64,000 bases of DNA from Bacteroidales bacterium (GTDB lineage: Bacteria > Bacteroidota > Bacteroidia > Bacteroidales > P3). Positions 1 to 40,028 of this stretch are shown piece after piece (the stretch's first letter is position 1; the number at the start of each line of letters is the position of its first letter). Where the stretch lies: positions 399 to 64,398 of the forward strand of contig JAFSOU010000015.1 in NCBI GenBank assembly GCA_017443265.1, given 5' to 3'. A program made the translations under genes and the position numbers. The notes beneath the pieces were generated by a model. The model had not been told where the DNA came from and ran no database searches. It worked only from the letters and a program-made list of their open reading frames with translations.

Positions 1-1077
1 AACTTTGTTCACAATATCGATAGATATTACTTTTTTATTTTCTATTGCAGACATCATTGTATTATAGAATGCCTTTTGAGCACCCGACATATTATCCAAT
101 TCTTTTTCTGAGATTTCATCATTTTTGCGAACCACTCCATTATTTAATATAAATAACTCACTTGAAAAATCGAAAAAACTATTAATAATTTTAATAAATG
201 AATTAATATCTTCCAATTCCCCAGTAAGTACTAACTCCATCCCCGTAGGGTCAATAAATTTCACAGGATTATTCGCACAATACGCATAAGGCGTAAACGT
301 CGGATACTTTTCAAATAAGGGGTCACGGGAAGTAAACGTAGGCGGTGCATAATACCTCGCTTCGTAGTAGTACATTCCAGTTTCTTCATCTAATTCCTTG
401 GCATTAAAGCTGTACTTAGGCAACACCGAAGAACCAAAACTATTGTTATATTCATTCGTAATCTCCCCAAACGGAGCATACAAAAAACCTTGCACAACAC
501 TCCTGTTTTCATCCGTTACGTAGCACGTACTTCCCAGATGGTTCGGGTGGTAATAATAGACAGAGGAAGTATTTGGCATTAAGTTGGTTAAACCTACCTG
601 CGGTAACTCAAACACCGGTTTCGGGTCATCAGGATTTTGTTCCTCACCAACGGGAAGGAAGTTGTAGCCAGTAATATCAACTATATTGCGGCGTATATTA
701 GTGTCAAGTTGGTCTTTTCTATCCTGTAGCTCTGGGTCGTTTACATTCATAGAAATATTTTGGTCTCCAAGCCTACTTGCTATGCGCTCCATGCCGTTGT
801 AGTAGTGTTTGGTGTAGTAGCCGTCTTGGTTGAAGTTCAGGTAGCTATTGGGGTAGAACATGGCGTTGTGCAGGTTAAAGTTTACGCTTTCCAAACGGCC
901 GTTCACCCAGTTGGGGTTTAGGTCAAAGCTGTATTTGTAAGTTCTTGTTGTGCCTCCATCGTAGCCATACAAGGAGTAGAACAGCCTGTCGTAGCTGTAC
1001 ATACGCAGGTTGCCGTCCGCACCAAAGCGGTAGAGTTCTTCGGAGGGGGTGGGGGATGAGGTCGGGAGCAGGGACAT
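1..1077 (-). CDS. Orphan Rhs C-terminal module. An Rhs core-end fragment (241..1077) is fused to a different AT-rich toxin tip (1..240), and the 3' end lies outside the window.
   Basis: I translated the minus strand from the ATG at 1077..1075: MSLLPTSSPTPSEELYRFGADGNLRMYSYDRLFYSLYGYDGG...YYYHPNHLGSTCYVTDEN...YAPFGEITNE...YCANNPVKFIDPTG/MELVLTGELEDINSFIKIINSF... The frame stays open to position 1 (359 codons). Residues 11-279 align without gaps to the last 269 core residues of the large Rhs, and similarity stops right after DPTG. It is absent from the ORF track because no stop codon falls inside the window. Confidence 0.85.
   Translation of the reverse strand, partial: MSLLPTSSPTPSEELYRFGADGNLRMYSYDRLFYSLYGYDGGTTRTYKYSFDLNPNWVNGRLESVNFNLHNAMFYPNSYLNFNQDGYYTKHYYNGMERIASRLGDQNISMNVNDPELQDRKDQLDTNIRRNIVDITGYNFLPVGEEQNPDDPKPVFELPQVGLTNLMPNTSSVYYYHPNHLGSTCYVTDENRSVVQGFLYAPFGEITNEYNNSFGSSVLPKYSFNAKELDEETGMYYYEARYYAPPTFTSRDPLFEKYPTFTPYAYCANNPVKFIDPTGMELVLTGELEDINSFIKIINSFFDFSSELFILNNGVVRKNDEISEKELDNMSGAQKAFYNTMMSAIENKKVISIDIVNKV
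241..1047 (-). repeat. Diverged direct repeat (807 nt) of the rhs core 3' end. Its partner is 2463..3269.
   Basis: Codon-for-codon colinear with 2463..3269. Long identical runs occur, for example ttcacaggattattcgcacaatacgcataagg. Identity is roughly 80% by eye and was not computed. Confidence 0.85.
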
Positions 1078-1101: not shown

Positions 1102-1842
1102 TTAGTTGTCTTCTTTGTGTATGGTTTTTAATGGGATAAGGTATTTCACATATAAATCTCCATCATTTATTATGGGAGGATCTGTAGTCACAAAAGTCAA
1201 TAAATTGCGCCATCTTCTGTTCATTATTACAAGCAGAAATTCGTTTGTACCTTTGTATATATTGTAAAAAAAGCATTCTCTTACTCTTGTATCTTCCGAA
1301 CCATGTCTTCTGATTTTGATGACATCTTCCCAAGATGTGTCTATAGCAGGCATAGGGACATGGGAATAATTTTCCCAAGTGGGATAATCTAACATCGTAT
1401 AATCAAGTCTTTTTTTTATCTCATCGCTACATCTTGGATAGATATATTTCATAATGTTATTATATCGGTTCTCTATCAGAAAATAGTCTTTTTTACAGAC
1501 AAGAGATTTGATTTCATCAATTGACATTGAACGACTTATCGGAATATTGCAACTTCGGGTGTAAATTGTCCCGGTAGAATATTGAATTTTTGATTTAATT
1601 TTGATTAATCCATGACGTTTATTTGTCTTACGCGAATTCCAATACAAAAGATAGTGATAATAAGGGACTTCGTACCAGCGAGTGAATGAAGCCAAAGAGT
1701 CCAATTTAACAATTCCCAAGACAATACAGTCTATGTCGTAATTGCCTATGCTGTCAGTTTTTCTAAGCCTTTCGTTTGACTGGGCATGTATGCCATTATA
1801 TATCAATATCAAACAGATGATTACAATTATTTTTTTACCCAT
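1102..1842 (-). CDS. Candidate cognate immunity protein for the Rhs toxin tip (246 aa, N-terminal signal-peptide-like segment, no family recognised)
   Basis: The ORF starts 16 nt before the rhs stop (ATG at 1842..1840, rhs stop at 1827..1829). It is AT-rich like the toxin tip. The N-terminus MGKKIIVIICLILIYNGIHAQ is hydrophobic with an AxA-like end. The position immediately 3' of a polymorphic toxin tip fits an immunity gene. Confidence 0.6.
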   Translation of the reverse strand: MGKKIIVIICLILIYNGIHAQSNERLRKTDSIGNYDIDCIVLGIVKLDSLASFTRWYEVPYYHYLLYWNSRKTNKRHGLIKIKSKIQYSTGTIYTRSCNIPISRSMSIDEIKSLVCKKDYFLIENRYNNIMKYIYPRCSDEIKKRLDYTMLDYPTWENYSHVPMPAIDTSWEDVIKIRRHGSEDTRVRECFFYNIYKGTNEFLLVIMNRRWRNLLTFVTTDPPIINDGDLYVKYLIPLKTIHKEDN

Positions 1843-4800
1843 GGCCAGGTTATATTATTTTTTATTGTTCCGTTGTGTAATTTAGAAGGTATTTTTTTCA
1901 TTGGTTTATCTTTCCATGTTTTTTCAAAATCTTCAATTAATACTAGTTCTCCTCCATATGAAATGCCGGAAGAGATACGGGTTGGACATCCTGCTGTTGA
2001 AAAAATTAGAGCAATATAATCTTTTGAAATCCATTTTCCATCACCACCCGTTTCCATTAAACCATCCGTCCAGTGTTGAATACCAAGTGTATGCCCAATT
2101 TCATGTGCCATTGTTCTAATACCAGCAGTCGCTCTCAGACGAATTATATTACCATTTTCAGTTTCTCCTCTTGCTTTATCATCTCCAACATAAGTTCTCC
2201 CTTCATAATAATTAGCCATGCCCGACTTGTCATTTTCAAATGCTTTTTTTGCATCTTCTCGTACTTCTATTTGCAAATCAAACTTAATGGTATATTCTTG
2301 TTTTTCTTTACCTTCTCCAATAACATACTTATAACACCCAGATTCACTATTCCAAAAATGTATTCCTTTTTTTAAATCATCAGCATTCTCCTTCGATGTA
2401 TAGTATTTCGCTCTGAATGTTATAGTTTTATTTTCATCATCCACAACTGGTTCGAAATCTTCCCCCGTCGGATCCACGTACTTCACAGGATTATTCGCAC
2501 AATACGCATAAGGTGAGAAAGTTGGGTACCGCTCAAAGTGAGGATCACGTGAAATAAACACCGGCGGAGCCATGTATCGTGCCTCATAGTAGTACATTCC
2601 CGTCTCCTCATCCAACTCCTTGGCGTTAAAGGAGTACTTGGGCAACACAGAAGAACCAAAACTGCTATTATGCTCGTTAGTTATCTCTCCAAAGGGAGCG
2701 TACAAAAATCCCTGTTGTACTATAGCATTCTCATCCGTAACATAACAAGTGCTTCCCAAATGGTTGGGGTGGTAATAATAGACAGAGGAAGTGTTTGGTA
2801 TTAAGTTAGTTAAACCAATCTGTGGCAGTTCAAAAATCGGTTTCGGGTCTTCGTGGTTCTGCTCCTCGCCGGGTTCTAAAAATTCATATCCCGTTATTTC
2901 CACAATGTTTTTCCGTATTAAACTATCTTGCCACTCTTTACGGCTTTGCAGGTCGGGGTCGTTTACATTTATAGGCAGGTTCTGGTCGCCCAAGCGTGAG
3001 GCTATACGTTCCATTCCGTTGTAGTAGTGTTTTGTGTAGTAGCCGTTGCTATTAAAGTTCAAATAGCTGTTGGGGTAGAACATGGCATTATGTAGGTTAA
3101 AATTCACTGCCTCAAGTCTGCCGTTCACCCAGTTTGGAGACAAATCCATGCTGTACTTGTAGGTGCGAGTGGTGCCTCCGTCGTATCCGTACAGGGAGTA
3201 GAAAAGCCTGTCGTAGCTGTACAGCCGCAGGTTGCCGTCCGCGCCAAAGCGGTAGAGTTCTTCAGAGGGCTGTGCGTTGGGTATAGTTGTCTCCCTGCGC
3301 TGCAGGCTGCCGCCAATGCCGTACTGCTCGTTCACGTTGGTGCCGTCGGCATAGCTTATGTTGTTTGGGGCAAAGGTGGTCTGCCCTTCGTTAAGGCTGC
3401 CGTAACTGTAATAGCGTGTCTGGCTGGTGGTTGTGTTGCTGTTCAGGTCTGTCTGCTGCAGGCCGTACTCCTGTATCTTGCCCCAGTCGCCGTAGGTTAC
3501 GCTCAGGGCGTAGGTCTGCGGGTTGGCGGCGCTTACCAGCTGGTTTGTGCTGTCGTAGCTGAATGTCTCGGTAAAGGTCTGCCCCGCCAGCCACGGGTAG
3601 CTGCTCACGGCCTGCGTTATGTTGCCCGCGGGGTCGTAGCTGTAGGCTGTGTGGGAGAGCTGGCTGTTGCCGCTAAGGGTGGTTATGCCCGTCAGTCGGC
3701 AGTTCTGCGGGTGGTAGGCGTACTGCATCTTCAGGCCGTTGCCGTATTTGCGGCTTGTAACCGCACCAAACTTATCATAAAGTACACTATCTAAATAATT
3801 GTACATTGTTAATTGTACATTGTACATTCTAAACAACTGTCCGCCGCGGTCGTAGTCGTAGCTCACCGTCTCGCCGTCGGGGTAGGTTATGGAGGTGGTG
3901 CGTCCCCAGCTGTCGTATTCGTACTGCGTGGTAAGGGCAAGGTCGGTGGCAAGGAAAGGCAGCGCGTAGGTGCGGGTCTCGCTTTTCACCTCGCCCATGT
4001 TGCCGTAAGTGTAGTCCATGCGGCCGCTCTCGTCAAACACGGTCTCCACGCGTCCGGCGTAGTCGTAGCTATATACCGTGGGCAGTGTGCTGTCGCTGTA
4101 TATAACGCTGTCCAAGCGGTTGGCTATGTAGCGGCGGGTTATGGTCTTCTGCTTGGGCTGGCCGTTCTCCTGCCATTTATGCGTCTCGGTGGCAGGGTTC
4201 AGTCCGTCGTAGGTGTAGAGGGTCTCGAGGTGTCCCTCGCCGTAGCTTAACCGGCGGCCCAGCCAGTCGTACTCGTATGCGCGGCTCCAGTCGCCGTTGT
4301 TGGAGCTATATACCGCCAACAGGTCGCCCACGGGGCTGTAGTCGCAGTATAGCCACGGCTGTCCTGCGGCCTTGGCGGCCCATTGTCTGCCGTCGGCGTC
4401 CTTCAGCGTTGTGGAGGTGTGGCCGTTGGGGTCGGTAACGGCGGTGCGGAACAGCGTTTTGTTAAGGTGGCTGCCGCTGAAACCGTAGGCTGTGCGTGTG
4501 GTGCTGCCGTCGGGTGCTGTCTGCACCAGCGGTCTGTCGAGCACGTCGTAGGTCGCTGTGGACGGTGTTATCGCGTCCACGGCAAAGGCAAAGCGTGTGC
4601 TGTCGCGGTGCGCCTCGGTGGGGTGGTAGGTGGCCACGGCCCTGCCGAGGCCGTCAAATACGGTGTGCCCGCTCACCACTAATTTCTCCACGCCCTGCAC
4701 CTCGGCTTCAACGCGGGTCTGCACCGCGCGCCCGAGGCCGTCGCAGTAGGTGTGGGTCTTTATGGGGTTGGCGGGGTGCTGCGGGTCGTAGTTCTCCGTG

Positions 4801-7800
4801 GTGGCCGAGGACACGTTGCGTGCCGTCTCCTTGCCGCGGTAGGTGTAGCGTATGGTGTATGGCGCGCCGTCGGCTATCTCCTTGGGGCCGCGTATCGTCA
4901 GGGGGCGTCCCCAGCTGTCGAGGGTGTACTCCATGCTGTTGCCGGCGCGGTCGGTAACCGTCAGCGGCACGCCGTAGCGCAGGTCGTAGTTCTGCATCTG
5001 CGAGCTTGTGCCGAAAGTGTCCGTAACGCTCTCGGGATAGGTGTGGACGTCGCCGTCGTAGGTGTAATGCACGGCGGTGTTGGGGCCGCGCACATCGGTG
5101 ATATTGCCGTAAATGTCGAACACATAACGGGTTGCGAGGGTGTTCTGCCCGTCGTAGTCCATTATTGCGGTGTAGTGTCCCAATGTGTCTATATCTGTGG
5201 TTCTCAGTCGCATACCTTGTATTTCCACACGTTGTACTTTATTAACGATGTGGTTGCCGTTATATTGCGGGTGGTACGCAATTTCCACTTCCACCGTCGG
5301 CTGGTCGGTGCTGCCGTGGCGTTGCAGCACCACGTTTCCGTTGCCGAAATCGTAGTCTGTCTCCTGCCACTTCACTATGCCCGCCGTGGGCTGTCCTTCG
5401 TAATAGCATGTCTGCGAGCGTGTTATGTACGGAAATACCCTTTCGGCGTCGCCAATCACGTCAAGAGTTTCTTGTTGCAGGGTGTTGGCGGTCTGCACAT
5501 ACAGCAGTCCCCTCGAGTTTCGCAAAAAGCTGGCCACAGGTATGCCCTTGGTATGTATGTCGCTGTTGCTGAAATACTTGTCGGCGGTACTGTGCACGGT
5601 GTCGCCGTTCCAGCGGGTTTCCGTCACCTTGGCGAACCCGAGGAAGGCTTTCTCGTCGCGGTCGTAGTATCCGTGGCTGTAGCTGTAGGTGGTGCGCAGG
5701 GTGTCGCGCCCGTCGCCGGGCAGGCCGTCGCATATCTTCAGCTCTCTCGCCACCCAGCGGCGCTGGTGATATACCGTTGGGGCCGTAAGCTCGTAGTCGG
5801 CGTATATGGTGCCGCCCAAGGGGTTGGTGATGCTTTTCAGCAGACCGGTGCGTCCCATGCGCGAGTAGCGCACCGCTATCTCCGTGCCGCTCTCCGATTT
5901 CAGCAGGTCGGCCACGCCGTCGCCGTCCATGTCGCTTATCTGCAGTTTTTCGTTGCTCAGGCTCATGGAGGCCTTGAGGCCCGCGCTGCCGCCCGCTTTA
6001 AGTAGCCAGAACGACCATCCGCCTGTGCCTTCTATATTTGTCGAGGCGCTGGTGGAGGTGCCGTATTCCGCAAGGTTGGCCAGTATGTCGGGTGTGCGCC
6101 ATGCCGTCCATCCCGCGGCGAAGGCGCTGCCGGTGTTGCGGCGGTATTGTATCTCGCCGTCGGCGAAATTCCTCCTCACAAGGTCGGGCAGGCCGTCGCC
6201 GTCCATGTCCTGCAGGAACACCGTCTGCGTGTTGCTGGCCGTGGTTACGCCCACGCCTCCGCTTATGGCGTTGTTCCAAATGCTGAAAGTGCCCGAGGCG
6301 CTTGCCGAGAGGCTCAGCGAGGCGCTCACCGTATCCAACCCTGGCCATTGCTGCTGCGGCAGGAAACCGTAGCCGGTGCCGAGGCGCACGGTGCCGTCGG
6401 AGCATACTATGTCGGGCAGTCCGTCGCCGTTGAGGTCGGCAAGGGTTCTGTAGGTGCTGTCGGAGGCTTTGCTCGCGCCGGGGCTTAGCACAAAGTCCCT
6501 GCCACGTCCCGAGGAGGTGGTCTGTTTGGAGGTGTTCAAAAACTGTCCTGGCAGCACTACGGATCGGCTATTGCCCGTCCCGCTGTAGGGGTGCCCGCCG
6601 CCGAAGGGCCGGTACGCCGCGCTTTCGTAGCTTAATATATGGTAGGGCTTGGTGTAATATACTCCGCCGCCGTCTATTATGTCGGGACGGCCGTCGCCGT
6701 TGAGGTCCGTAACGTCGCGCTCCATCCATGTCCTGCCGTTGCCGGCGGAATACAGGGCCACGGTGTACGAGAAATTCTTGCTCTTGCTTATCTTGTCCAG
6801 TTTGCCTCCTCCGGCCGCCGTCGCGCGGCTGCCAGTGGAGCCTCCGGATGTGCGGTATGCGCGGTCGCCTCCGCCGGAGCTCTGGCCGCAGGGTATGGTG
6901 TTGCCCGCCACATTGGGCAGCAGGGTGTCCGTCATCACTCCGAGGCTTATCGCGGGTCCGCTCACGTAGGCGTTGGGGTATATGCCCTCCATGCGGCGGC
7001 GCTCGCCGTTGCCTGTCAGCGGCATGCAGCCGAACAGCGAGAGCACGTCCCCTACGGTGCCTGTCGTGGTGGTGTCCGACAGCTGTTTCAGGTAGTTGCT
7101 GTCCGTAAGGTTGCCGTAATAGGTGTTCAGGTCGGTTGCACTGCTAGGCATATTGCTTATACTGAACAACTTGGCAAGATTTATCTTGATACTGTCGTCG
7201 TGGCGGTACTGCACAGCGTGCCAGCCGCCGAAACCGTGGCCGAAGGGCAGCGAGGCCGTGCTGAGGTGGTATTTGGGGCTCCCGGCCCTGTAGCAGCGGT
7301 AGTTAGGCACTATGTGGTATTCCAGCGTCTTTATGGTGTCCACAACACCTCCCGCAAGGGTGTCGAAATACATCGTGGTCACCGTCCCGCCGCCGGCGGT
7401 GAGGGTCTTGTAATAAAGGTAGGGATGCCACTGGTTGTCTTTCCATACGGTGGAGGTGTCGCCTATGGCGTCGAAAATCAGGCTGTCTTCCTCGGCAAGG
7501 GTTATCACGGTGTCCCACACGGGGCTGCTGCCGGGAGTCAGTGTCCGCATCAGCGTGTTGTTGCGGCGTATCTCCAGCCGCACCGCGCTGGCGAAATCCG
7601 CCGCCGCGGTAGGCACTCGGAGCGCCGCCTGTCCGTTGCCGGGCGACACGAACCTGCCGCCGCCCATGGCGAAACCGGCCACCTCGCTGCGCTGCCCGTG
7701 GGTGGGGTAGCGATAGGGGTGGAACACCTGCACCCGAGGGTTCCAGTGCAGCTCGCGGCTCACATCACGGCCGCCTTTGCTGCGGGCGCGGAACAGCAGC

Positions 7801-10800
7801 ATGCCCTCGCCGTAATCGGGAGGCTCCGTGCCTACGCACTGCTCCAGAATCCTTTCTATGTACTCGCGGCTGAGGTAGCCGTTGTCGGGGTCTGTCAGGT
7901 CGCCGCGCCACAGTGTGTCGGTACCTGTAAGGGTGTCGATGGCTATGAGCACATGCACGGGCGAGCCTGTGCCCTTGGGCATATAGGTTTGGCCGTAGTA
8001 CTCCACGCTGAGCACCACGGTGTCGGGACGCTCCTCGGCATTGCGCACAAGGCCGCCCAGCCACGCCTTGGCGTCGATGGACAGTATGGTGGTGTGGGGG
8101 ATGTCCTCGCTCTCCCATATCCTTATTATGTCGTAATGGGGCGATTCCTCATCTATGGAGCTCTCCGCGTCGGGTATCTCGTCGAGGCCGAGGGGCTCCA
8201 CGCAGGGATATTTGGGGGTGGCGTCGGGGGTTACAGTGGGCGTGCCGCAGCCGCCGGGCATGGTCATGCTCGGGGCATTGTAGCGGCCTCCGAGACGGCT
8301 TATACGGCTGTCGTCCACTATGTCGGGCAGTCCGTCGCCGTCCATGTCGCTCAGATAGGTGCCTGTGGTGGTGGTGGTGGTGCTCCAGCTTACGCCGCCG
8401 CTGATGCCCGCCACATTCAGAACGGGACCGTGGCTGACGCTCACACGGCTGTCCCTCAGATAGTTGCCGGCACCGCTTATCGGCGACGGGGTAAGGAAGG
8501 CTCCGTTCTGCTGACGCTGCCAGTGCAGTCCGCCGTTAATCACCAAAAGGCGGTCGGGAAGGCCGTCGCCGTCCACGTCGCAAAGGGTGCTGCTACCGTA
8601 GCCAAGGCCGTAGTCGGCGCCAAGGCTGTACGACACGCTGTTTATCTTCGACGAGGTGTTGGCGCCCACACCGGCATACACTCCGGCGTCGCCGCCGAAA
8701 CTGAGGCTCGCATTGCCGCCTATCACCGTCCTCGTGCCCAGAACGCCCGACAACGAGCGCTCTATGGGCTTGCGCAGCTTGCCGTGGGCGCCGCCCAGAA
8801 GTCCGCCCAAACCGTAGTCGGCTGTGGTCATGGTGGTCGTGGCCGTGCCCAGAAGGCTGTCGGCATCTATCTCACGGTAGTATTCTATGTCGTGGTCGCG
8901 GCTGCCGTCGCTGTAGTCGCGCCCCCACTGGCGTATCTTCCTCAGCTGGGCCATGCCGTGGATGTCCTCGCCGTAGCAGAAACTGTAGCTCCGCACCATC
9001 TCGTCGCCGTAATAGACAAGGATGCGCCGCAGCTTGTCGCGCTGGCTCTGCAGATGGCCGCTGCGGGCCTCGTTGCGGTCGGTCTTGGGATACTCCCTGT
9101 CGCAGTCGCAGAGATCCATGCCGAGATAGAAATCAGGAACTTCCTTGCCGCCTATATATATGTTCTCTATGCTGTCGGCGTTTATGCTTCCGCTGCCTCC
9201 GCCGCACAGGTCGTTCTCTATTTCAAGGTGCAGGGTGTTGACCCCTGCCGTCTCGTTCTTTATCATGACGCCGGTGGGACCTTGGTCTGTTACCACAGGC
9301 TCGCATTCGTTCGGGAGGCCGGTGCTTTCAAAGTGGAACTCGTATCCCTTGAAGGGGGCGCACACATGTGCCGAATGCAGCTCGTTTATCGTTATGGTGG
9401 AGCCGCACTCCACCGTCGGCAGCTGCAGGCTGATGACGCCGGCGCCGTCGGTGGTCGGCGTGTGGGTGCCCGAGGCGGTAACTATCTCGAAGGGTATCCC
9501 CGCGAGGGGGCGGCCGGTGCCGGCCTCGGTCTTTATTATGTTTATCTGAACGGGGGAGCACTCGCATTTCACGCACGGGTGGTCCTTCAATATCAGCGTC
9601 AGACCGTTGCCTTGTATGTATGTCTTCTCCAACACGTCGGCAAAGTCTCCCTGGCTTATTATCTCTGCCGTGCACGGCTCGTAAGGCTCGTCCTTGTGCA
9701 TCCTGAACTGGAAATTGTGAAGACTGTCGCAGTACCCGTTTACAGACTGCTCGTTCACCGTTATCACCTCGTCGCAAAGGACTCCATTCAATATGGCGTT
9801 TATCTTTCCGTCAGCGCCGGTGATGTAGGTGTGGGTGCCGCCGCCGTATGTTACGCGGAACTCCACGCCGGGCATCGGCGTCTTGTCAGTGGCATCGTAT
9901 TTCTCTATGTTGAGCTCCACGTTGGGACACTCGCACTTGTCGCACTCGTCGTTATAAATCTCTATGATTATGTGGTGGTCGGTGGCCTGGATGCTCTTTA
10001 TCTTGCCGGGGTCGCTGCCGGTGTCCAGCACTTGGGGCGTTGTGCTGCCGCTCGGCATGCGAAGGGTTATTTTGTCCACCATGTTGCAGTATCCTGGTGC
10101 CGAAATTTCGCGTATCACAATGGTGTCGCCCTGCTGTATGCACACGTCCCACGACGCCTCTCCGGATGCGTCGGTGGTCGCGGGCCATACGCCGTGGACG
10201 CCACGCAGGTCCGACAGCTCGAAAACGGCTCCCGGGATGAGGTTCCCGCTCCGTTTGTCGTATTTCAACACCTCCACAAGCAAATCCATGCAGGTGCCGG
10301 GGGGCGACAGAGGGTCGCAAAGATTGGCGCTTACCGCAACGGATCGACCGGAGCGGCTCCTGCCGGACGCTCCTCGACCGCCGCCTTCGCCGCTGCCTCC
10401 GGACAAGTCTGTGCCGGTACCGCCAGCCGCATCGCGGCACGGGTTGGCTGTGCTCCCGAAAAAGACGTTGTACACTCCTCTCTCGCCTGTACGGCTGTTG
10501 CCGGTGTATTCTATGCTCTCCAGCCACAGCTGACGGCCCAGGTACACTCCGCCAGCGTCGTACTGACGGCGCTTGTTGTAGTGGTAACTTATGTAGTTGC
10601 CGTCGGCGTCCTCAACACGGCACAGCGGCCAGTGGCTTATGTTGCCGCCGGCGTCGCGCATAAGCACGGTGTCTGCCAGGGCATAACCGGCGTAGGTGCC
10701 GTAATAGTATTTGGTGCCGCCTTTGTCGGTTACTATCCAATAATAGTTCTGGGGGCTTGTGCCGTGGCGCTCTATCTTGTCGTAGCTGCTCTCCGTCCTG

Positions 10801-11762
10801 CGCCAGAAAACTTTTGCCCCTGCGGTATGGCGGGGCTCCCACTGCTGCTGGTAGCGCGGCGAGGGCAGCAGCTCCTCGCCGTCGATGACGTAGCTCTCGG
10901 TCTCGCTGGACATGTCGTAGCGCGGGACACCCCAACGGCTGTCCACGCTTATGGCTGATGTGCGCATGTCCCAGCCCACTCCCAGCAGTCCGTCGCCTCC
11001 GCCGCTGCTGTAGCCTATAGTAAGGTCGGGCTGCATGCCTCTGCGGCCTTGCGGCAATTCTATGGGGTATCTGGCGGTGAGTTCTCCCTGGCTGTTGCCC
11101 GCCGACACCTCGGCAAGCGTAACTCCCGCGGCGGGGTCGGCGGCCTTCAGCTCTTTCAGCCCCGTGGGGGTGAACGACTGTCCCTCGGGCATCTCGGGAT
11201 GGCTCACCACGGCGTTTATCATGTCGGTGAAATGGGTGGTGCGGGAATATACTATGCCCCCGGATACGGAATCGCGCTGCAGACGCTTCCACACTTTCAT
11301 GCCCTCGTCATAATAATAGGTATATATGTCCTTGTGGCTGTAGCCTTTGGGCAGCTTGGCCTCGTCGTAGCCTATCTGTATGCCGGCGGCTTTGCGGAAA
11401 TGCTCGCCGTGCGGCAGGAATCGGTACCCGGCGTGTCCGGACGTGACATTGACCATGCCCGCGCCCAGAGGAGGCAAATCAGCGTCTATGCCGCCGACAC
11501 TGAGCTTTGTGCCATGTCTAAGACTGCCACTCTCGCATACGAGCAGCGCATCGTCGAAACGCATCTCGAATGCCTCGCCTCCCGTGGCATAGTACTCCGA
11601 CGAAGTGGGCTTTCCCGATGCTTCATCTCCTTTTTTTATGTCTTCCGACGGCTTGCCGCCAAGATTAGTCGTCCCGAAACTGTAATAGCCATAGACGCTG
11701 GCACTGGCCACAAACGCCAGCGCCGCAACGATAAGGATTGTCCTTGACATACCGCTTCTCAT
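1827..11762 (-). CDS. Giant Rhs/YD-repeat polymorphic toxin (3311 aa) with a fused TcB-like (SpvB N-domain plus FG-GAP/VCBS propeller motifs) and TcC-like (YD shell) architecture and a C-terminal metallopeptidase-type tip
   Basis: N-terminal hydrophobic signal MRSGMSRTILIVAALAFVASASVYG. SpvB/TcaC-N-type motif YPIELPQGRRGMQPDLTIGYSSGGGDGLLGVGWDMRTSAISVDSRWGVPRYD. Six DxDGDGxxD motifs (DVDGDGLPDRL, DMDGDGLPDIV, DLNGDGRPDII, DLNGDGLPDIV, DMDGDGLPDLV, DMDGDGVADLL). Many YD repeats (YxYDxxGR/N-type). Rhs core end YYYHPNHLGSTCYVTDEN...YAPFGE...NPVKYVDPTG. Confidence 0.95.
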   Translation of the reverse strand: MRSGMSRTILIVAALAFVASASVYGYYSFGTTNLGGKPSEDIKKGDEASGKPTSSEYYATGGEAFEMRFDDALLVCESGSLRHGTKLSVGGIDADLPPLGAGMVNVTSGHAGYRFLPHGEHFRKAAGIQIGYDEAKLPKGYSHKDIYTYYYDEGMKVWKRLQRDSVSGGIVYSRTTHFTDMINAVVSHPEMPEGQSFTPTGLKELKAADPAAGVTLAEVSAGNSQGELTARYPIELPQGRRGMQPDLTIGYSSGGGDGLLGVGWDMRTSAISVDSRWGVPRYDMSSETESYVIDGEELLPSPRYQQQWEPRHTAGAKVFWRRTESSYDKIERHGTSPQNYYWIVTDKGGTKYYYGTYAGYALADTVLMRDAGGNISHWPLCRVEDADGNYISYHYNKRRQYDAGGVYLGRQLWLESIEYTGNSRTGERGVYNVFFGSTANPCRDAAGGTGTDLSGGSGEGGGRGASGRSRSGRSVAVSANLCDPLSPPGTCMDLLVEVLKYDKRSGNLIPGAVFELSDLRGVHGVWPATTDASGEASWDVCIQQGDTIVIREISAPGYCNMVDKITLRMPSGSTTPQVLDTGSDPGKIKSIQATDHHIIIEIYNDECDKCECPNVELNIEKYDATDKTPMPGVEFRVTYGGGTHTYITGADGKINAILNGVLCDEVITVNEQSVNGYCDSLHNFQFRMHKDEPYEPCTAEIISQGDFADVLEKTYIQGNGLTLILKDHPCVKCECSPVQINIIKTEAGTGRPLAGIPFEIVTASGTHTPTTDGAGVISLQLPTVECGSTITINELHSAHVCAPFKGYEFHFESTGLPNECEPVVTDQGPTGVMIKNETAGVNTLHLEIENDLCGGGSGSINADSIENIYIGGKEVPDFYLGMDLCDCDREYPKTDRNEARSGHLQSQRDKLRRILVYYGDEMVRSYSFCYGEDIHGMAQLRKIRQWGRDYSDGSRDHDIEYYREIDADSLLGTATTTMTTADYGLGGLLGGAHGKLRKPIERSLSGVLGTRTVIGGNASLSFGGDAGVYAGVGANTSSKINSVSYSLGADYGLGYGSSTLCDVDGDGLPDRLLVINGGLHWQRQQNGAFLTPSPISGAGNYLRDSRVSVSHGPVLNVAGISGGVSWSTTTTTTGTYLSDMDGDGLPDIVDDSRISRLGGRYNAPSMTMPGGCGTPTVTPDATPKYPCVEPLGLDEIPDAESSIDEESPHYDIIRIWESEDIPHTTILSIDAKAWLGGLVRNAEERPDTVVLSVEYYGQTYMPKGTGSPVHVLIAIDTLTGTDTLWRGDLTDPDNGYLSREYIERILEQCVGTEPPDYGEGMLLFRARSKGGRDVSRELHWNPRVQVFHPYRYPTHGQRSEVAGFAMGGGRFVSPGNGQAALRVPTAAADFASAVRLEIRRNNTLMRTLTPGSSPVWDTVITLAEEDSLIFDAIGDTSTVWKDNQWHPYLYYKTLTAGGGTVTTMYFDTLAGGVVDTIKTLEYHIVPNYRCYRAGSPKYHLSTASLPFGHGFGGWHAVQYRHDDSIKINLAKLFSISNMPSSATDLNTYYGNLTDSNYLKQLSDTTTTGTVGDVLSLFGCMPLTGNGERRRMEGIYPNAYVSGPAISLGVMTDTLLPNVAGNTIPCGQSSGGGDRAYRTSGGSTGSRATAAGGGKLDKISKSKNFSYTVALYSAGNGRTWMERDVTDLNGDGRPDIIDGGGVYYTKPYHILSYESAAYRPFGGGHPYSGTGNSRSVVLPGQFLNTSKQTTSSGRGRDFVLSPGASKASDSTYRTLADLNGDGLPDIVCSDGTVRLGTGYGFLPQQQWPGLDTVSASLSLSASASGTFSIWNNAISGGVGVTTASNTQTVFLQDMDGDGLPDLVRRNFADGEIQYRRNTGSAFAAGWTAWRTPDILANLAEYGTSTSASTNIEGTGGWSFWLLKAGGSAGLKASMSLSNEKLQISDMDGDGVADLLKSESGTEIAVRYSRMGRTGLLKSITNPLGGTIYADYELTAPTVYHQRRWVARELKICDGLPGDGRDTLRTTYSYSHGYYDRDEKAFLGFAKVTETRWNGDTVHSTADKYFSNSDIHTKGIPVASFLRNSRGLLYVQTANTLQQETLDVIGDAERVFPYITRSQTCYYEGQPTAGIVKWQETDYDFGNGNVVLQRHGSTDQPTVEVEIAYHPQYNGNHIVNKVQRVEIQGMRLRTTDIDTLGHYTAIMDYDGQNTLATRYVFDIYGNITDVRGPNTAVHYTYDGDVHTYPESVTDTFGTSSQMQNYDLRYGVPLTVTDRAGNSMEYTLDSWGRPLTIRGPKEIADGAPYTIRYTYRGKETARNVSSATTENYDPQHPANPIKTHTYCDGLGRAVQTRVEAEVQGVEKLVVSGHTVFDGLGRAVATYHPTEAHRDSTRFAFAVDAITPSTATYDVLDRPLVQTAPDGSTTRTAYGFSGSHLNKTLFRTAVTDPNGHTSTTLKDADGRQWAAKAAGQPWLYCDYSPVGDLLAVYSSNNGDWSRAYEYDWLGRRLSYGEGHLETLYTYDGLNPATETHKWQENGQPKQKTITRRYIANRLDSVIYSDSTLPTVYSYDYAGRVETVFDESGRMDYTYGNMGEVKSETRTYALPFLATDLALTTQYEYDSWGRTTSITYPDGETVSYDYDRGGQLFRMYNVQLTMYNYLDSVLYDKFGAVTSRKYGNGLKMQYAYHPQNCRLTGITTLSGNSQLSHTAYSYDPAGNITQAVSSYPWLAGQTFTETFSYDSTNQLVSAANPQTYALSVTYGDWGKIQEYGLQQTDLNSNTTTSQTRYYSYGSLNEGQTTFAPNNISYADGTNVNEQYGIGGSLQRRETTIPNAQPSEELYRFGADGNLRLYSYDRLFYSLYGYDGGTTRTYKYSMDLSPNWVNGRLEAVNFNLHNAMFYPNSYLNFNSNGYYTKHYYNGMERIASRLGDQNLPINVNDPDLQSRKEWQDSLIRKNIVEITGYEFLEPGEEQNHEDPKPIFELPQIGLTNLIPNTSSVYYYHPNHLGSTCYVTDENAIVQQGFLYAPFGEITNEHNSSFGSSVLPKYSFNAKELDEETGMYYYEARYMAPPVFISRDPHFERYPTFSPYAYCANNPVKYVDPTGEDFEPVVDDENKTITFRAKYYTSKENADDLKKGIHFWNSESGCYKYVIGEGKEKQEYTIKFDLQIEVREDAKKAFENDKSGMANYYEGRTYVGDDKARGETENGNIIRLRATAGIRTMAHEIGHTLGIQHWTDGLMETGGDGKWISKDYIALIFSTAGCPTRISSGISYGGELVLIEDFEKTWKDKPMKKIPSKLHNGTIKNNITWPWVKK
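1830..2462 (-). other. C-terminal toxin domain of the Rhs protein (211 aa after DPTG) carrying the metzincin-type zinc motif HEIGHTLGIQH (2073..2105)
   Basis: The reverse complement of 2073..2105 reads CAT GAA ATT GGG CAT ACA CTT GGT ATT CAA CAC, which translates to HEIGHTLGIQH (HExxHxxGxxH). It is followed by WTDGLMETGG, a possible Met-turn. GC content drops sharply exactly at the DPTG boundary. Confidence 0.75.
2463..3269 (-). repeat. rhs core 3' segment duplicated in the orphan module. Its partner is 241..1047.
   Basis: Encodes PSEELYRFGADGNLRLYSYDRLFY...NPVKYVDPTG, colinear with the orphan copy. Confidence 0.85.
9204..10292 (-). repeat. Three tandem ~120-aa Cna-B/SpaA-like (prealbumin-fold) repeats inserted in the N-terminal TcB-like region (aa 491-853)
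   Basis: R1 is CMDLLVEVLKYDKRSGNLIPGAVFELSD...ISAPGYC. R2 is CECPNVELNIEKYDATDKTPMPGVEFRVTYGGGTHTYITGADGKINA...SVNGYC. R3 is CECSPVQINIIKTEAGTGRPLAGIPFEIVTASGTHTPTTDGAGVISL. Each is bounded by Cys pairs. A Gly/Ser/Arg-rich linker (GGTGTDLSGGSGEGGGRGASGRSRSGRS) precedes them. Confidence 0.65.
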
Positions 11763-11774
11763 ATTGCCGCCCTC

Positions 11775-13010
11775 CTATTTCTTTATAAGTTTCACACGGT
11801 ACTCGTTGTCGCCACCGCGCACCACCACAATGTAGTTGCCCGACATAAGTGTATGTATGTCAACGGATTGCTCATTTTCTCCCAGTTCCACTTTTTTGCA
11901 ACTGAGGCCAAGCGGGTTAATTATCTCCACCTCTTTCGTCTTTCCGGCAAAGCCGTCTATCTCTATGCGGTCGCTTGCAGGGTTGGGATGGATTCCAACT
12001 TGAGCTGTGGCGTCGTCGTAAATTGCTTCGCTTGCCGACTTCTCGTTTCTTTCTCCTTCGTCCAACGATACGGCCGTTGTCCCTTGAGGTGTTTCTTTCG
12101 TGGTTAGGCTCAATTTGTAAATTCCCCGTATGTCGTTTTCAAAACGTATGGCGAATGTGTAATAGTGGTCGTCGGCTGACGTGGATTCAAAATGGGTCTC
12201 GGTGGAAGTGGCACCGATTATTTTCTCCAATACTGCCACTGGCTCCGAGTCGTGCCAACGCCCGTTGCGGCCTACGCTAATCTGTACCGTCCTGCCGGCA
12301 AGTCCCTCGCGAACTATGCGCCAGCTGTTTTCGTAGCCATGTGCATCCCCTTCCCCGAACAGCAGGTAATCGCCTGCGTCTATGCCGACGCACATCGCCC
12401 TAATCTCCTCGTCGCCACGCTTCGACAAGCAGCTGACTTTATCCAGCCCCAGGACATTGTCGCGTGCAATTCCGAAAACACGGCTGCTGTAGTCAGGTGC
12501 CTCCTCGCAGTTCCACAGCGTGTCGCCTGCCTCGCTTACATAATAATTTATGGTTATATCGTGTTTAAGGGCGAGGTAGGTCTCGGCCTTGCGCCTGTCC
12601 AACTCGCTCAACGGTCTTGTGTACAGCAGCAACTCCCGTATGTCGGTGCTGTCGTTGCTCTCTACGTTCAATATCCCCGATTTGCTGCCCAGCATCGTGG
12701 TGCTGCTGTGCAGGGTGAGGCTGCTTGTTTTCGCCTCCTGCTGCCCTTGTCTGTACTGCAACACTCCACAATCCCTGCCGCCTACACGTATTACGAACAC
12801 GTTTTCAGGCGTTTCTTCGCTCTTGCGTGCTGAATATACAGCTATGACGCTCACCGTAGGCTTGGTCGACGAACGCAACCCCGCCGACAGACTGCAACAA
12901 CCGTCAGCACCCGTACTCTTGCACCAACTGTCGGGCACAACACTGGGCTGGGAATGTATAGAGAATACCGTACAACAAAACGATATTATCAAAAATATTC
13001 TTTTTTTCAT
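11775..13010 (-). CDS. Secreted protein with a T9SS C-terminal sorting domain, encoded directly upstream of rhs. The N-terminal part is possibly LamG/concanavalin-like.
   Basis: Likely start is MKKRIFLIISFCCTVFSIHSQ (ATG at 13010), and the ORF-track start at 13100 adds 30 unlikely residues. The C-terminus IHPNPASDRIEIDGFAGKTKEVEIINPLGLSCKKVELGENEQSVDIHTLMSGNYIVVVRGGDNEYRVKLIKK matches the type A T9SS CTD pattern. Its stop codon lies 12 nt before the rhs ATG. The LamG-like guess rests only on IRELLLYTRPLSELDRRKAETYLALKH. Confidence 0.8.
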   Translation of the reverse strand: MKKRIFLIISFCCTVFSIHSQPSVVPDSWCKSTGADGCCSLSAGLRSSTKPTVSVIAVYSARKSEETPENVFVIRVGGRDCGVLQYRQGQQEAKTSSLTLHSSTTMLGSKSGILNVESNDSTDIRELLLYTRPLSELDRRKAETYLALKHDITINYYVSEAGDTLWNCEEAPDYSSRVFGIARDNVLGLDKVSCLSKRGDEEIRAMCVGIDAGDYLLFGEGDAHGYENSWRIVREGLAGRTVQISVGRNGRWHDSEPVAVLEKIIGATSTETHFESTSADDHYYTFAIRFENDIRGIYKLSLTTKETPQGTTAVSLDEGERNEKSASEAIYDDATAQVGIHPNPASDRIEIDGFAGKTKEVEIINPLGLSCKKVELGENEQSVDIHTLMSGNYIVVVRGGDNEYRVKLIKK

Positions 13011-13600: not shown

Positions 13601-14101
13601 TTACTTGAGTCCCATTTCTTTCTTTACAAGAGGCAGAACATCGTCGCCACCTTCGTAAAGAGCAGCTCCCGAGGTGAAGATGTAGGTGTAGCCGTTGGCC
13701 TTGGCAACCTTGGCGATGGCGTTCTTGATCTTCTCCTGAATGGGAGCGAAGAGTTCGTCGTTGCGCTCCTGCAGGCGTTTCACAGCATTTTCCTGAAACT
13801 GGCGCATACGTCCTTCTTTATCCTGCAGTTCAGTCTCTTTGGTCTGTTTGATGAGGTCCGACATCTGGTCTTTCTTGCTCTGATATTCTGCGTAGAGTGT
13901 CTGCAGTTCGTTCTGCATGGATTTGAGCATCTTTTCAGCCTCTTCCTGTTCCACCTGAAGGACTTTCTGTGCCGAATCCACTTCGGGCATTATCTTGATA
14001 AGTTCCTGTGCGTCGATGTGGCCGAGTTTTACAGGCTTTTGAGCAAAGGCAGCTGCTGAAGCGAACAGTGCAACTGCTAACACTAAGATTGTTTTTTTCA
14101 T
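13601..14101 (-). CDS. skp: OmpH/Skp family periplasmic chaperone
   Basis: MKKTILVLAVALFASAAAFAQ signal followed by coiled-coil, Lys/Glu/Gln-rich OmpH-like sequence. It sits downstream of bamA. The start was moved to the internal ATG at 14101. Confidence 0.85.
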   Translation of the reverse strand: MKKTILVLAVALFASAAAFAQKPVKLGHIDAQELIKIMPEVDSAQKVLQVEQEEAEKMLKSMQNELQTLYAEYQSKKDQMSDLIKQTKETELQDKEGRMRQFQENAVKRLQERNDELFAPIQEKIKNAIAKVAKANGYTYIFTSGAALYEGGDDVLPLVKKEMGLK

Positions 14102-14228
14102 TGTAATGTTATTATTTTTCTGTTTAATATATTTCGTATCAATCACTTACATCAACAACACATTGTAGTTGCCGATTGCAAATATACGATATTTTTTTTA
14201 TTTTCGCTATTTCTGTCAAAAACGGGCA

Positions 14229-14750
14229 TTATTGTTTTGCCGTGTAGCCCATCTGTTTCAGTATCTCGTCGCTGACATCGGTTTTTGCGCTGGCGTAGAT
14301 AATCGAGGATTCGCCCGATTTGTCGAAAATGATGGAGTAACCCTTGGCGGTGGCGTATTTCTCGATGGCGGAATACACTTTGTCCTGAATGGGTTTCAGC
14401 AGGTCCTCGCGTTTTTTCTCAAGGTCGCCGCCGGAGCCGAAGCGTTTTTTCTGGAGTTCCTTCACCTCTTTTTCCTTTTCGATAATCTCGTCCTGACGTT
14501 TGTTTTTCAGGTCTTCGGGCAGGAGGTAGGCCTCGGACTGGTACGATTTGTAGAGTTTGTCCAGTTCTTGGAACTTGGATTCTATCTCTTTCTGCCAATC
14601 GACGGAGAATTTGTCGAGGGTTTGCTGCGCCTGGTCGTAGTCGGGAATATTGCTCAATATATATTCGGTGTTTACGCAAGCGTATTTCTGTGCGTTTGCC
14701 GCAAAGGCGGCCACAAGACAGAGTGCTAATGTGAGGATTGTTTTTTTCAT
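14229..14750 (-). CDS. skp: OmpH/Skp family periplasmic chaperone (second copy)
   Basis: MKKTILTLALCLVAAFAANAQ signal, OmpH-like composition, and location immediately downstream of bamA. Confidence 0.85.
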   Translation of the reverse strand: MKKTILTLALCLVAAFAANAQKYACVNTEYILSNIPDYDQAQQTLDKFSVDWQKEIESKFQELDKLYKSYQSEAYLLPEDLKNKRQDEIIEKEKEVKELQKKRFGSGGDLEKKREDLLKPIQDKVYSAIEKYATAKGYSIIFDKSGESSIIYASAKTDVSDEILKQMGYTAKQ

Positions 14751-14785
14751 ATCAAATTATGTTTTAAAGTTATACTTCGTGTTTG

Positions 14786-17317: not shown

Positions 17318-17388
17318 CGTCGTTTTTGTTGTAAAAACAATTATTCGCAATTAGTATTAACGAAGCTATTGCCGATTTATTATATTTT

Positions 17389-25694: not shown

Positions 25695-25730
25695 CGTTTT
25701 ATATTGTCGGTTATTTTGTTTGTCCAAAAA

Positions 25731-26960: not shown

Positions 26961-27350
26961 TTATTTCTTTCCTAATTTATCCATAAAACGTTTGGAATCA
27001 ACGATATATCTAATATGCACCGCCTCCCCTATCTTGGCCACTTCGTCGTAAGCCTCGATGTTGAACACCAAACGTCGTCCGTCGGTTTCAACGAGTGTGG
27101 AATGGCATCGCACCTGCATTCCCAGCGGCGTGGCTTTCAGGTGTTTCACGTCTATTTCCGCTCCCACGGTGGTGAGGCCTTCGGGCAAAAGTTTTTCAAC
27201 AGAAGTGTGTGCCGTCTGCTCCATAAACGCCACAAGCGACGGAGTGGCGAACACCGGCAGCAACCCCGAGCCGCAGTTGGAGGCCGAGTCGCTGTCGAGG
27301 ACAGCCTTTGTAAGTTGGTTTTCAATACCTTTGCGGATGTCTATTTCCAT
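26961..27350 (-). CDS. Hotdog-fold thioesterase family protein
   Basis: 129 aa. The pattern ...ASNCGSGLLPVFATPSLVAFME...TVGAEIDVKHLKATPLG... resembles FlK/YbgC-type thioesterases. Confidence 0.65.
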   Translation of the reverse strand: MEIDIRKGIENQLTKAVLDSDSASNCGSGLLPVFATPSLVAFMEQTAHTSVEKLLPEGLTTVGAEIDVKHLKATPLGMQVRCHSTLVETDGRRLVFNIEAYDEVAKIGEAVHIRYIVDSKRFMDKLGKK

Positions 27351-27353
27351 AAG

Positions 27354-28370
27354 TCAGTTATCTGTTTTGTTTGTAACTATCTTTCCGTGAACAAACGGAT
27401 TATTCTTGTTTTTAGTACTTACAATACTGATATTCAGTTCGTAACCGATAAGCAGTATCATGCAGCTGAGCTGAATCCACAACATCACTATTATCAGCGT
27501 TCCGATGGAGCCGTAGAGGGCGTTGTATTTGGAGAAATTCTCGATATACAGGCGGAAACCGGCAGTAACAAGGAAGAAAAGCACTGTGGACAGGGTGGCT
27601 CCTGCCGAAAAGAAGTTGAGCCGCTGTTTTTTCACCGGCGCCACGTAGTAAATCGACGAGATTACGCCCAAGCCTATGGCTATCATCAAAAGCCACCTGC
27701 CTATGCTAAGCACGTAATACCAGAAATTCACCGCCAGAAGGTCCTGCGAAAGCAGGTAAGCCATAAAATGCTTGTAGCCCATCATGACGGTAAGTACCAC
27801 TGCCACAAGCACAAACAGCAGGAAAACAAGGTACAGGCACAGCAGTTTGCGTTTCACAAACGAGCGCGTCTCTATTATGTTCATCGACTGGTTAAAAGCC
27901 TGCATTATGGAGTCCATACCGTTGACGGACACCACAATAGTTCCCAAGAAACCCACCGAAAGCAGCACGTTGTGTTTGTGCGTAAGTATCTCGTCCATAG
28001 TGTTTATCACCTTGGCGTAGACATCGGCAGGCAGCATCTCGTTGAGGGCGGCATACAGCTCGTTGATAATGCCCTGAATGGGGAAATAGGGCAAAAGCGA
28101 GAACAGGAACAGCAGCAGCGGGAACAGCGCCAGAAAAAACGAGAAAGCCATTGCCTTGGCGCGGTTGGCTATGGATTCTTTGAGCAGGTTACGGATAAAA
28201 AAGTCGAGCACATCGAAAATGGGCACACCCTGAAAACCGGGCAACGTAATCTGCCTTATCAGATGCAGAAACTTGCGCACCGGCCGCTTGTAGAGCAGCT
28301 TGCGGGGGAGTTTTTGGAAATACTCCACCACGCTTTCTTTGCGCTTTTTCAACTTTTCTATCCTTTTCAT
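27354..28370 (-). CDS. YihY/BrkB family membrane protein
   Basis: Polytopic protein, 338 aa, with ...ANRAKAMAFSFFLALFPLLLF... and ...YGSIGTLIIVMLWIQLSCMILLIGYELN... typical of the YihY family. Confidence 0.8.
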   Translation of the reverse strand: MKRIEKLKKRKESVVEYFQKLPRKLLYKRPVRKFLHLIRQITLPGFQGVPIFDVLDFFIRNLLKESIANRAKAMAFSFFLALFPLLLFLFSLLPYFPIQGIINELYAALNEMLPADVYAKVINTMDEILTHKHNVLLSVGFLGTIVVSVNGMDSIMQAFNQSMNIIETRSFVKRKLLCLYLVFLLFVLVAVVLTVMMGYKHFMAYLLSQDLLAVNFWYYVLSIGRWLLMIAIGLGVISSIYYVAPVKKQRLNFFSAGATLSTVLFFLVTAGFRLYIENFSKYNALYGSIGTLIIVMLWIQLSCMILLIGYELNISIVSTKNKNNPFVHGKIVTNKTDN

Positions 28371-28373
28371 GGC

Positions 28374-29213: not shown

Positions 29214-29283
29214 ATCTTTACAGTATTATTTTTTGTCAAAAACAATAATTTACAAGCCCTTTTTTACAAAAAAAAAGCCTTTG

Positions 29284-29291
29284 CAAAGATA
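29284..29291 (-). promoter_or_regulatory. Bacteroidota -7 promoter box (TAtcTTTG) upstream of nadC
   Basis: Plus-strand caaagata is tatctttg on the minus strand, about 70 nt upstream of the nadC ATG. Confidence 0.45.
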
Positions 29292-29518
29292 CCAAAAAAA
29301 AATGAGATATGCAACTTTTTCTTTTTGCGTTTTTTCGAGCAGACACAGTGGTTCGTTTTCACACTTGCGGCGATATTTTCGAGGCCATAGTTTTTTTTCC
29401 GCAAAATGAAGAAAAAAAATGATTGTCCACCAATAATACAGAGCTCCGCAATCCGTGTATATTGGTGCCATCCGTGTCCAAAAATAAATAAGAGTATGTA
29501 AAAGTCATTTTTTTTGTG

Positions 29519-38130: not shown

Positions 38131-38285
38131 TTTTTCCTCCTGCTCGCCTTCGGCTCACGAGATCTTGTAAATCTTGTTAATGAAGAAAGGCCCAGTGGAC
38201 CTTTCGATAGCGAAGCGGAGAAAAAAAACGCCGAAGGCGAAATATTGTTTAGATTTCCAAGATTTCTGCCCGAAGGGCAAGGAGA

Positions 38286-40004: not shown

Positions 40005-40028
40005 CAGAGCAATAAAAAAGTATTTGAT

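Follow-up and report, generated by a model that had tools for sequence, protein, structure and literature searches.

Analysis of a 64,000-nt stretch of the assembly GCA_017443265.1 from an uncultured, gut-type Bacteroidales bacterium (contig JAFSOU010000015.1; hereafter the window) identified a gene pair in which a 3311-aa Rhs toxin with an SpvB segment is directly preceded by a 411-aa secreted protein, hereafter the partner, that combines a probable DUF8202 core with a type IX secretion system (T9SS) C-terminal sorting domain (CTD). Judged from sequence comparison, this partner–Rhs pair is a conserved, Bacteroidota-specific module, and the pairing probably links the SpvB-Rhs toxin class to the T9SS. 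The question addressed is by which route SpvB-Rhs cocoons that have neither TcA nor PAAR exit from diderm cells. The module belongs with the known SpvB-Rhs polymorphic toxins as a T9SS-partnered variant that had been sighted earlier and never characterised, and the best explanation of the whole, to which we assign a probability of about 60%, is a Bacteroidota polymorphic-toxin module whose T9SS-exported partner couples the Rhs protein to the surface of the cell.

The neighbourhood of the two genes was surveyed in both directions. The search from the partner gave 29 loci (L001–L029), 25 of them informative and the other four cut by contig ends, and an SpvB-Rhs gene lay directly downstream of the partner in all 25 (Bacteroidales, Flavobacterium and Dysgonomonas). 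On the contigs of close homologues, a 12-nt gap was followed by a huge gene of the SpvB/SpaA/FG-GAP/midN/DUF6443/RHS architecture, and a metagenome scan contributed 17 further loci. A scan of the GTDB species genomes detected distant partners, whose DUF8202 cores are 29–37% identical, in four Flavobacterium and one Dysgonomonas genomes (among them Flavobacterium branchiicola, F. pectinovorum and Dysgonomonas sp.); these partners are ~1000 aa long, carry a CTD and are followed at once by an open reading frame (ORF) of >2600 aa with SpvB, FG-GAP, midN and RHS. Conversely, when aa 1–460 of the Rhs protein were used as the query, a DUF8202 gene was found upstream in 5/5 Bacteroidota contexts, i.e. 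a Paludibacteraceae metagenome-assembled genome (MAG), Flavobacterium sp., Duncaniella, Prevotella aurantiaca and one unassigned JGI contig, three of the five being fragmented drafts. No partner gene was present beside the Rhs homologues of Treponema bryantii (L044), which has the same signal/ZU5(HFTD)/SpvB/Rhs design as here, and of Alloactinosynnema (L034), which has a CHAP tip and no ZU5. The survey, proposed in an initial annotation of this DNA, supports reading the upstream T9SS cargo as a conserved, dedicated neighbour. The flanking genes change by lineage, with skp/bamA here and SurE, major facilitator superfamily, outer-membrane protein or AbiE genes elsewhere, and because they differ in every lineage, the pair appears to be kept, or to move, as a unit. 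Many of the loci are close kin, so that independent events are far fewer than 30; the independent spread comprises at least six lineages, two orders (Bacteroidales and Flavobacteriales) and two partner size classes (~400 and ~1000 aa). That the pair is conserved and Bacteroidota-specific supports a functional T9SS link.

The module occupies positions 1 to 13010 of the window, rather than 1827 to 13010 as annotated initially, and is entirely encoded on the minus strand in the order DUF8202-CTD partner, Rhs toxin, candidate immunity gene and orphan rhs tip (Table 1). The ZU5/GAIN-like domain, the SpaA immunoglobulin (Ig) inserts, the metzincin-like tip, the immunity candidate and the orphan rhs tip are additions to the initial annotation. 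No terminator-like site was seen in the 12-nt partner–Rhs spacer, and a spacing of 12 nt also occurs in the related loci L001–L006. The partner stop codon together with the spacer (11763..11777, minus strand) reads TAGGAGGG, a Shine–Dalgarno (SD)-like sequence containing GGAGG just upstream of the Rhs start, which is unusual in Bacteroidota, where SD sequences are mostly absent. The Rhs stop is overlapped by 16 nt by the start of the 246-aa gene, and the arrangement of the partner, Rhs and immunity genes is tight, same-strand and operon-like.

Table 1. Features of the partner–Rhs module in window coordinates, ordered from the partner downstream (AF2, AlphaFold2; aa positions refer to the protein named)
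Feature	Position	Strand	Basis
Partner, 411-aa secreted protein	11775..13010	-	ORF; Por_Secre_tail, TIGR04183; homologue alignment
T9SS type-A CTD of the partner	11778..11993	-	Pfam, NCBIfam, Foldseek
Partner–Rhs spacer, 12 nt, GAGGGCGGCAAT	11763..11774	-	Sequence inspection; no terminator
Rhs polymorphic toxin, 3311 aa, signal-peptide/ZU5/SpvB/propeller/RHS class, TcB-TcC fusion-like cocoon	1827..11762	-	ORF, Pfam/NCBIfam, AF2, Foldseek
Predicted signal peptide or signal anchor, Rhs aa 1-24	11691..11762	-	Sequence; hydrophobic N-terminus kept in homologues
ZU5/GAIN-like domain, Rhs aa 50-188, HF|TD at aa 177-180	11199..11615	-	AF2, Foldseek, alignment
SpvB/TcB N-terminal shell segment, Rhs aa 208-440	10443..11141	-	Pfam SpvB, Foldseek
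Three Cys-flanked SpaA/prealbumin-like Ig domains, Rhs aa ~490-885	9108..10295	-	Pfam SpaA aa 496-558
Expanded FG-GAP beta-propeller with large insert, Rhs aa ~1040-1900	6063..8645	-	Pfam FG-GAP/FG-GAP_3, motif positions
TcdB_toxin_midN, DUF6443 and YD/RHS shell, Rhs aa 1931-3020	2703..5972	-	Pfam/NCBIfam
Rhs-associated core TIGR03696 ending DPTG, boundary of the variable tip, Rhs aa 3021-3100	2463..2702	-	NCBIfam
Variable toxin tip, metzincin/MMP-like, Rhs aa 3101-3311, 34% GC	1830..2462	-	Motif, weak PDB match, GC
Candidate immunity protein, 246 aa, signal peptide, 33% GC	1102..1842	-	ORF, predicted; overlaps Rhs stop
Partial orphan rhs C-terminal cassette, continuing past the start of the window	1..1077	-	Identity to main Rhs, GC

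The partner is composed of a signal peptide (aa 1–20), a hypervariable region (aa 22–115), the DUF8202 core (aa ~95–225) carrying the helix ERRKAETYLALKH (pattern ERRKAETYLAIKxxI), a second beta domain, a linker and the CTD (aa 340–411); its frame is open to 13100, and homologues begin at the MKK of 13010. An upstream protein of 411 aa with a T9SS CTD, exactly 12 nt away on the same strand, had been described by the initial annotation and was found as such, and the CTD exceeded both curated cutoffs (Por_Secre_tail, 36.8 bits versus 27; TIGR04183, 35.7 bits versus 23). By Foldseek, the CTD part of the AF2 model also matched the mirolase CTD (8qb1, TM-score 0.68); fold identification of the partner otherwise failed, giving generic Ig/fibronectin type III matches. 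The DUF8202 assignment rests on the precomputed PF26628 annotations of its homologues, as all 16 close homologues of the N-terminal 340 aa (~400 aa each, 39–98% identity) carried PF26628 together with PF18962. Similar cores, with 1022 representative matches, were also found repeated 4–10 times in giant proteins of 2000–6700 aa (P0137–P0283); of four that were scanned, two had Laminin_G_3 and one had a T9SS CTD, and these giants, numbering hundreds, seem to form a large and so far uncharacterised group of surface proteins built from repeats.

Across the window and loci L001–L018, the partner family is a recombination mosaic; within the rumen-type clade, aa 22–115 are 21–95% identical, and three or four N-types and two mid-types occur in all combinations. 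Co-variation of the partner with the Rhs N-terminus was sought, and independent reassortment was seen instead, namely that the variable regions of the partner reassort independently of the ZU5, SpvB and SpaA regions of the Rhs protein. This was exemplified by L017, where the Rhs N-terminus is 96–97% identical and the partner 22/48% identical, and by L015, which is the reverse. Such uncoupled variation fits an outward-facing, diversifying N-region of the partner. Some loci departed from the two-gene layout. In L044, L031 and L034, ZU5-SpvB (266–639 aa) and propeller-RHS (2458–2780 aa) are encoded by separate genes, which could be a true TcB-N/BC split or the product of frameshifts. In L030 (the Paludibacteraceae MAG), L033 and L036, the partner and Rhs genes are fragmented into multiple ORFs, and in L030 an IS1595 transposase lies between these; the cause is either decay of the loci or faulty assembly.

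As for the Rhs protein, the signal, SpvB motif, six DxDGDG-type motifs, RHS shell and core end that the initial annotation had reported in 3311 aa were all present. The N-terminus MRSGMSRTILIVAALAFVASAS is signal-like, and a comparable segment is retained by the homologues. Pfam SpvB was matched at aa 225–400 (E 1.7e-22), the previously quoted SpvB motif starting at aa 232, and Foldseek aligned the segment with YenB (9c4k/4igl), TcdB2-TccC3 (4o9x) and SpvB-N (6p0x) at E about 1e-9. The SpvB region is interrupted past its first part by the inserted SpaA Ig domains, with CxC motifs at aa 610, 733 and 885, and this insert region is variable among relatives (14–94% identity). The propeller region (aa ~1040–1900) is unusually long, and the six Ca-type motifs D-x-[DN]-G-D-G-x-x-D lie at aa 1062, 1139, 1686, 1776, 1852 and 1944. 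Further downstream, TcdB_toxin_midN (aa 1931–2053), RHS_repeat (E 1e-10) and TIGR03696 (57.7 bits versus a cutoff of 32.5) were matched, and the core-end motifs YYYHPNHLGS, PFGE and DPTG are located at aa 2995, 3023 and 3097, respectively. Among the profiles named in the initial annotation, SpvB, midN, FG-GAP, RHS_repeat, TIGR03696 and TIGR04183 were thereby recovered, whereas TcdB_toxin_midC gave no Pfam match in the Rhs protein at E <= 0.01. Neither PAAR nor VgrG was matched in the Rhs protein or the partner by Pfam and NCBIfam. The domain hits and the conserved signal-like N-terminus together uphold the view of the protein as a Sec-type, PAAR-less, TcB/TcC-fused cocoon.

Between the signal and the SpvB segment, aa 50–188 were modelled by AF2 as a beta-sandwich with a confidence (pLDDT) above 90, for which Foldseek returned the ankyrin ZU5 domain (3f59, TM-score 0.62, probability 1.0) and also the NLRP1/CARD8 FIIND and GAIN domains. 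HFTD sits between the last two strands of this domain, and in an alignment of 53 homologues from several phyla its H, F, T and D were kept in 47, 48, 48 and 49 sequences, respectively. By analogy with HF-S, the self-cleavage site in the ZU5 domains of PIDD and in Nup98, HF|TD may be regarded as an autocleavage-type motif, at which the Rhs protein would be cleaved. For the ZU5 superfamily, a CxH site is described in a passage of Zhang et al. 2012 (PMC3482391). The candidacy of ZU5 as the docking site of the partner was weakened, since ZU5 occurs in Treponema although no partner is present there, and both are missing in the actinomycete homologue.

The C-terminal tip contains HEIGHTLGIQHwtDgLM, i.e. 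HExxHxxGxxH at aa 3220 followed by D-G-L-M, and was weakly matched to the catalytic domain of matrix metalloproteinase MMP-1 in the PDB (~120 residues, E 0.009) and to Reprolysin_4 (16.3 bits, below the cutoff of 22), so that with modest confidence it would best be named metzincin-like. Tips of the relatives diverge exactly past DPxG, five relatives having five different tips, and the GC content is 56–61% in the Rhs body versus 30–34% in the tips and the immunity gene. Identical copies of the 246-aa gene follow the same Rhs gene in other assemblies (L037–L040), and a lone copy (P0285), 89% identical and with no Rhs nearby in L041–L043, looks by its sequence like an orphan (acquired) immunity gene. 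This lone copy is flanked by a queuosine-synthesis gene and a Mur ligase/alanine racemase gene; a 135-aa gene upstream of it was considered as a toxin remnant and rejected. The core of the orphan rhs cassette is 85.5% identical to Rhs aa 2832–3100 and has the same DPTG end, beyond which a different tip begins like that of the Rhs protein in the metagenome locus L013. The locus is a classical polymorphic Rhs toxin locus, and its immunity-like gene, orphan immunity copies and orphan tip, which are hallmarks of interbacterial polymorphic toxins, argue for a toxin of this kind.

Parts of this organisation have precedents. In the passages of Zhang, de Souza, Anantharaman, Iyer and Aravind 2012 (PMC3482391) on the TcdB/TcaC class, such toxins combine SpvB, an integrin-like propeller and RHS behind a signal peptide; an N-terminal ZU5 is frequent and was proposed to release the toxin at the cell surface. 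The Rhs protein of this locus is a member of that class, sharing with it the signal peptide, ZU5, SpvB, propeller, RHS, variable tip and downstream immunity gene, and metallopeptidase tips are listed there for Bacteroidetes as well. The statement of the initial annotation that no delivery module was recognisable therefore does not hold, because signal peptide, ZU5, SpvB and integrin-like propeller together define a trafficking class in those passages (PMC3482391). They contain no T9SS-CTD partner or outer-membrane step, whereas here a DUF8202-CTD gene precedes the toxin. Nor is the pairing new in kind, as the same annotation had supposed, since Steele and Moran 2021 (PMC8125069) reported that most rhs genes of Apibacter are of the SpvB/TcdB type, PAAR-less and adjacent to genes with T9SS type-A sorting domains, and inferred a T9SS association. 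The Apibacter loci are likened to ours by this description only, and the report, one paragraph on one genus, differs in having no partner family, cross-phylum survey or ZU5. The TANFOR toxins of Bacteroidetes, hypothesised to be T9SS substrates by Jana, Salomon and Bosis 2020 (PMC7073777), are likewise large signal-peptide toxins without a CTD that are encoded beside T9SS-CTD proteins; they differ in having the TANFOR delivery domain instead of SpvB/RHS and SprB-repeat/Fn3/PKD proteins as neighbours. In the literature, we found no experimental test of either T9SS proposal, for Apibacter Rhs or for TANFOR, and no paper mentioning DUF8202.

Among other RHS proteins, the Gram-positive Rhs/YD toxin WapA is Sec-exported and displayed on the cell surface. 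WapA and type VI secretion system (T6SS) effectors of the PAAR-Rhs kind share with the present protein an RHS cocoon around a polymorphic toxin with cognate immunity; WapA differs in that it need not pass an outer membrane and has neither SpvB nor a propeller, while the T6SS effectors are coupled to PAAR or VgrG and have no signal peptide, the reverse of what is found here. The BC cocoons of Tc toxins (TcdB2-TccC3 and YenB-YenC) have in common with it the SpvB fold, the FG-GAP propeller, TcdB_midN, the RHS shell and the core before a variable toxin. Here, in contrast, B and C are fused, a Sec signal, ZU5 and SpaA inserts are added, the propeller is enlarged, TcdB_toxin_midC is undetected and no TcA lies nearby among the scanned ORFs; the immunity gene and orphan tips moreover point to bacterial targets, unlike the Tc BC cocoon. 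Song et al. 2021, writing on Tc toxins, do not mention Bacteroidetes.

Under the coupling model favoured above, the Rhs protein would enter the periplasm through Sec and fold into a TcB/TcC-like shell around the C-terminal metzincin-like toxin, while the partner would be exported by the T9SS and attached to the surface through its CTD, with its hypervariable N-region facing outward. There it would couple the Rhs protein to the surface, either by carrying it through the T9SS or by capturing it outside, and the HF|TD joint of the ZU5/GAIN-like domain would let the cocoon detach from the N-terminal fragment. The toxin would then act outside the cytoplasm of competing bacteria, i.e. in the envelope, since the immunity candidate is itself predicted to be secreted by its signal peptide. 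The most specific version, in which a CTD-less 360-kDa cocoon crosses the outer membrane via the T9SS with the sorting domain supplied in trans (hitchhiking) and the ZU5/GAIN-like domain serves as a self-cleaving release latch, is tentative and in our estimation rather doubtful; no case of T9SS hitchhiking was found in the literature.

Several observations weigh against the coupling model. At ~100 Å, a folded TcB/TcC cocoon is wider than the SprA pore of ~70 Å, which makes co-export of a shell in its folded state physically doubtful; no citable pore dimension is given by Lauber et al. 2024. The Rhs protein has no CTD of its own, as neither Por_Secre_tail nor CHU_C was matched in it and its C-terminus is the toxin tip, and no experimental link of any SpvB-Rhs or Rhs protein to the T9SS was found in the literature. 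The AF2 model of the partner, built on 14 sequences, had a pLDDT of 56 and was poor outside aa 130–300 and the CTD, and the independent reassortment described above gives no sign of co-evolution at a specific partner–Rhs interface. Because the DUF8202 core is repeated in giant non-Rhs proteins, it is a surface-protein module for which Rhs partners are not the sole use, and the Treponema homologue, lacking the partner in a diderm with the same signal-ZU5-SpvB-Rhs design, indicates that the partner may have no export function. The last two points suit a partner that is instead a target-binding or adhesin subunit, secreted and anchored on its own by the T9SS and holding or orienting towards prey an Rhs protein that exits by vesicles, lysis or an intrinsic route shared with Treponema, as do the occurrence of Laminin_G_3 or a CTD in the giant proteins and the N-region, which is hypervariable and mosaic in the manner of an exposed receptor-binding or antigenic surface and reassorts independently of Rhs. 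This alternative is nevertheless unlikely in our view, since no other outer-membrane route is known for a 360-kDa periplasmic protein, and the 12-nt coupling and strict gene order equally fit a stoichiometric complex formed before export.

The remaining explanations deny the partner any part in the action of the toxin. The Rhs protein could be an anti-eukaryotic, host-directed Tc-like toxin served by a TcA-like translocator or a T6SS-iii elsewhere in the genome, with the T9SS neighbour unrelated. Its SpvB, propeller and midN parts are structurally TcB-like (YenB and TcdB2 by Foldseek) and its tip resembles an extracellular matrixin. The absence of PAAR, VgrG, Hcp, TcA and WXG that had been stated for the window holds for the 30 further large ORFs scanned by Pfam, smaller ORFs including those beyond 59.7 kb being outside the scan, and no TcA gene was seen in the annotated flanks of the related loci. 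T6SS and TcA delivery are accordingly rejected for the scanned window ORFs only, not for the rest of the genome, and this limit also weighs against coupling by the partner. Yet T6SS delivery is unlikely, because a signal peptide, unfit for cytoplasmic T6SS loading, is present and PAAR is lacking; the neighbour is conserved in 30 loci with changing flanks, which excludes chance adjacency; and the immunity-like gene, its orphan copies and the orphan tip mark an interbacterial toxin, so that a host-directed toxin is very improbable here. Slightly more remote still is mere co-inheritance of the pair as a mobile cassette, with the partner an ordinary T9SS adhesin that has no toxin role. The close relationship of many loci, by which the counts overstate independent events, and the missing co-variation of partner and Rhs are compatible with such a cassette, but order, strand and adjacency hold at 29–37% partner identity across two orders, the pairing persists through both partner size classes and through recombination that shuffles both genes, and the partner is missing exactly where the T9SS is absent (Treponema and the actinomycete).

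Elsewhere in the window, skp (OmpH) and bamA, then uppS (13601..17350, minus strand), lie directly upstream of the module and form an outer-membrane biogenesis neighbourhood; this placement is probably incidental, as related modules have quite different contexts. A 759-aa trypsin-like peptidase with Por_Secre_tail (23448..25727, minus strand) is a second T9SS cargo of the window, and its CTD indicates that the organism uses T9SS cargo signals. Three large ORFs on the plus strand had no Pfam match (27015..29390, 791 aa; 38174..39760, 528 aa; 42934..44160, 408 aa), and a STAND/AAA-type ATPase is encoded among them (40002..41153, plus strand).

The established functions of the T9SS concern gliding, adhesins and degradative enzymes, and its role in interbacterial toxin delivery has so far been hypothesis only, for the TANFOR toxins and Apibacter Rhs. 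What is new here is that the neighbour is one definable family (DUF8202 plus CTD) in two size classes, standing before the toxin gene in all Bacteroidota loci examined that were informative; that searches from either gene, spanning orders, tested the pairing, the non-Bacteroidota homologues being without the partner; and that the HF|TD motif is conserved while partner and Rhs vary as uncoupled mosaics. A loose remark thereby becomes a testable two-gene system, and the module is present in cultured isolates, e.g. Flavobacterium pectinovorum DSM 6368 and F. branchiicola CCUG 60096. We know of no T9SS substrate recognition by a sorting signal in trans, which, if true, would be a new mode of substrate recognition by this system. 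If hitchhiking and the release latch both hold, the module would represent a T9SS-dependent, contact-dependent and Bacteroidota-specific toxin delivery, and a TcA-independent deployment of BC-type cocoons.

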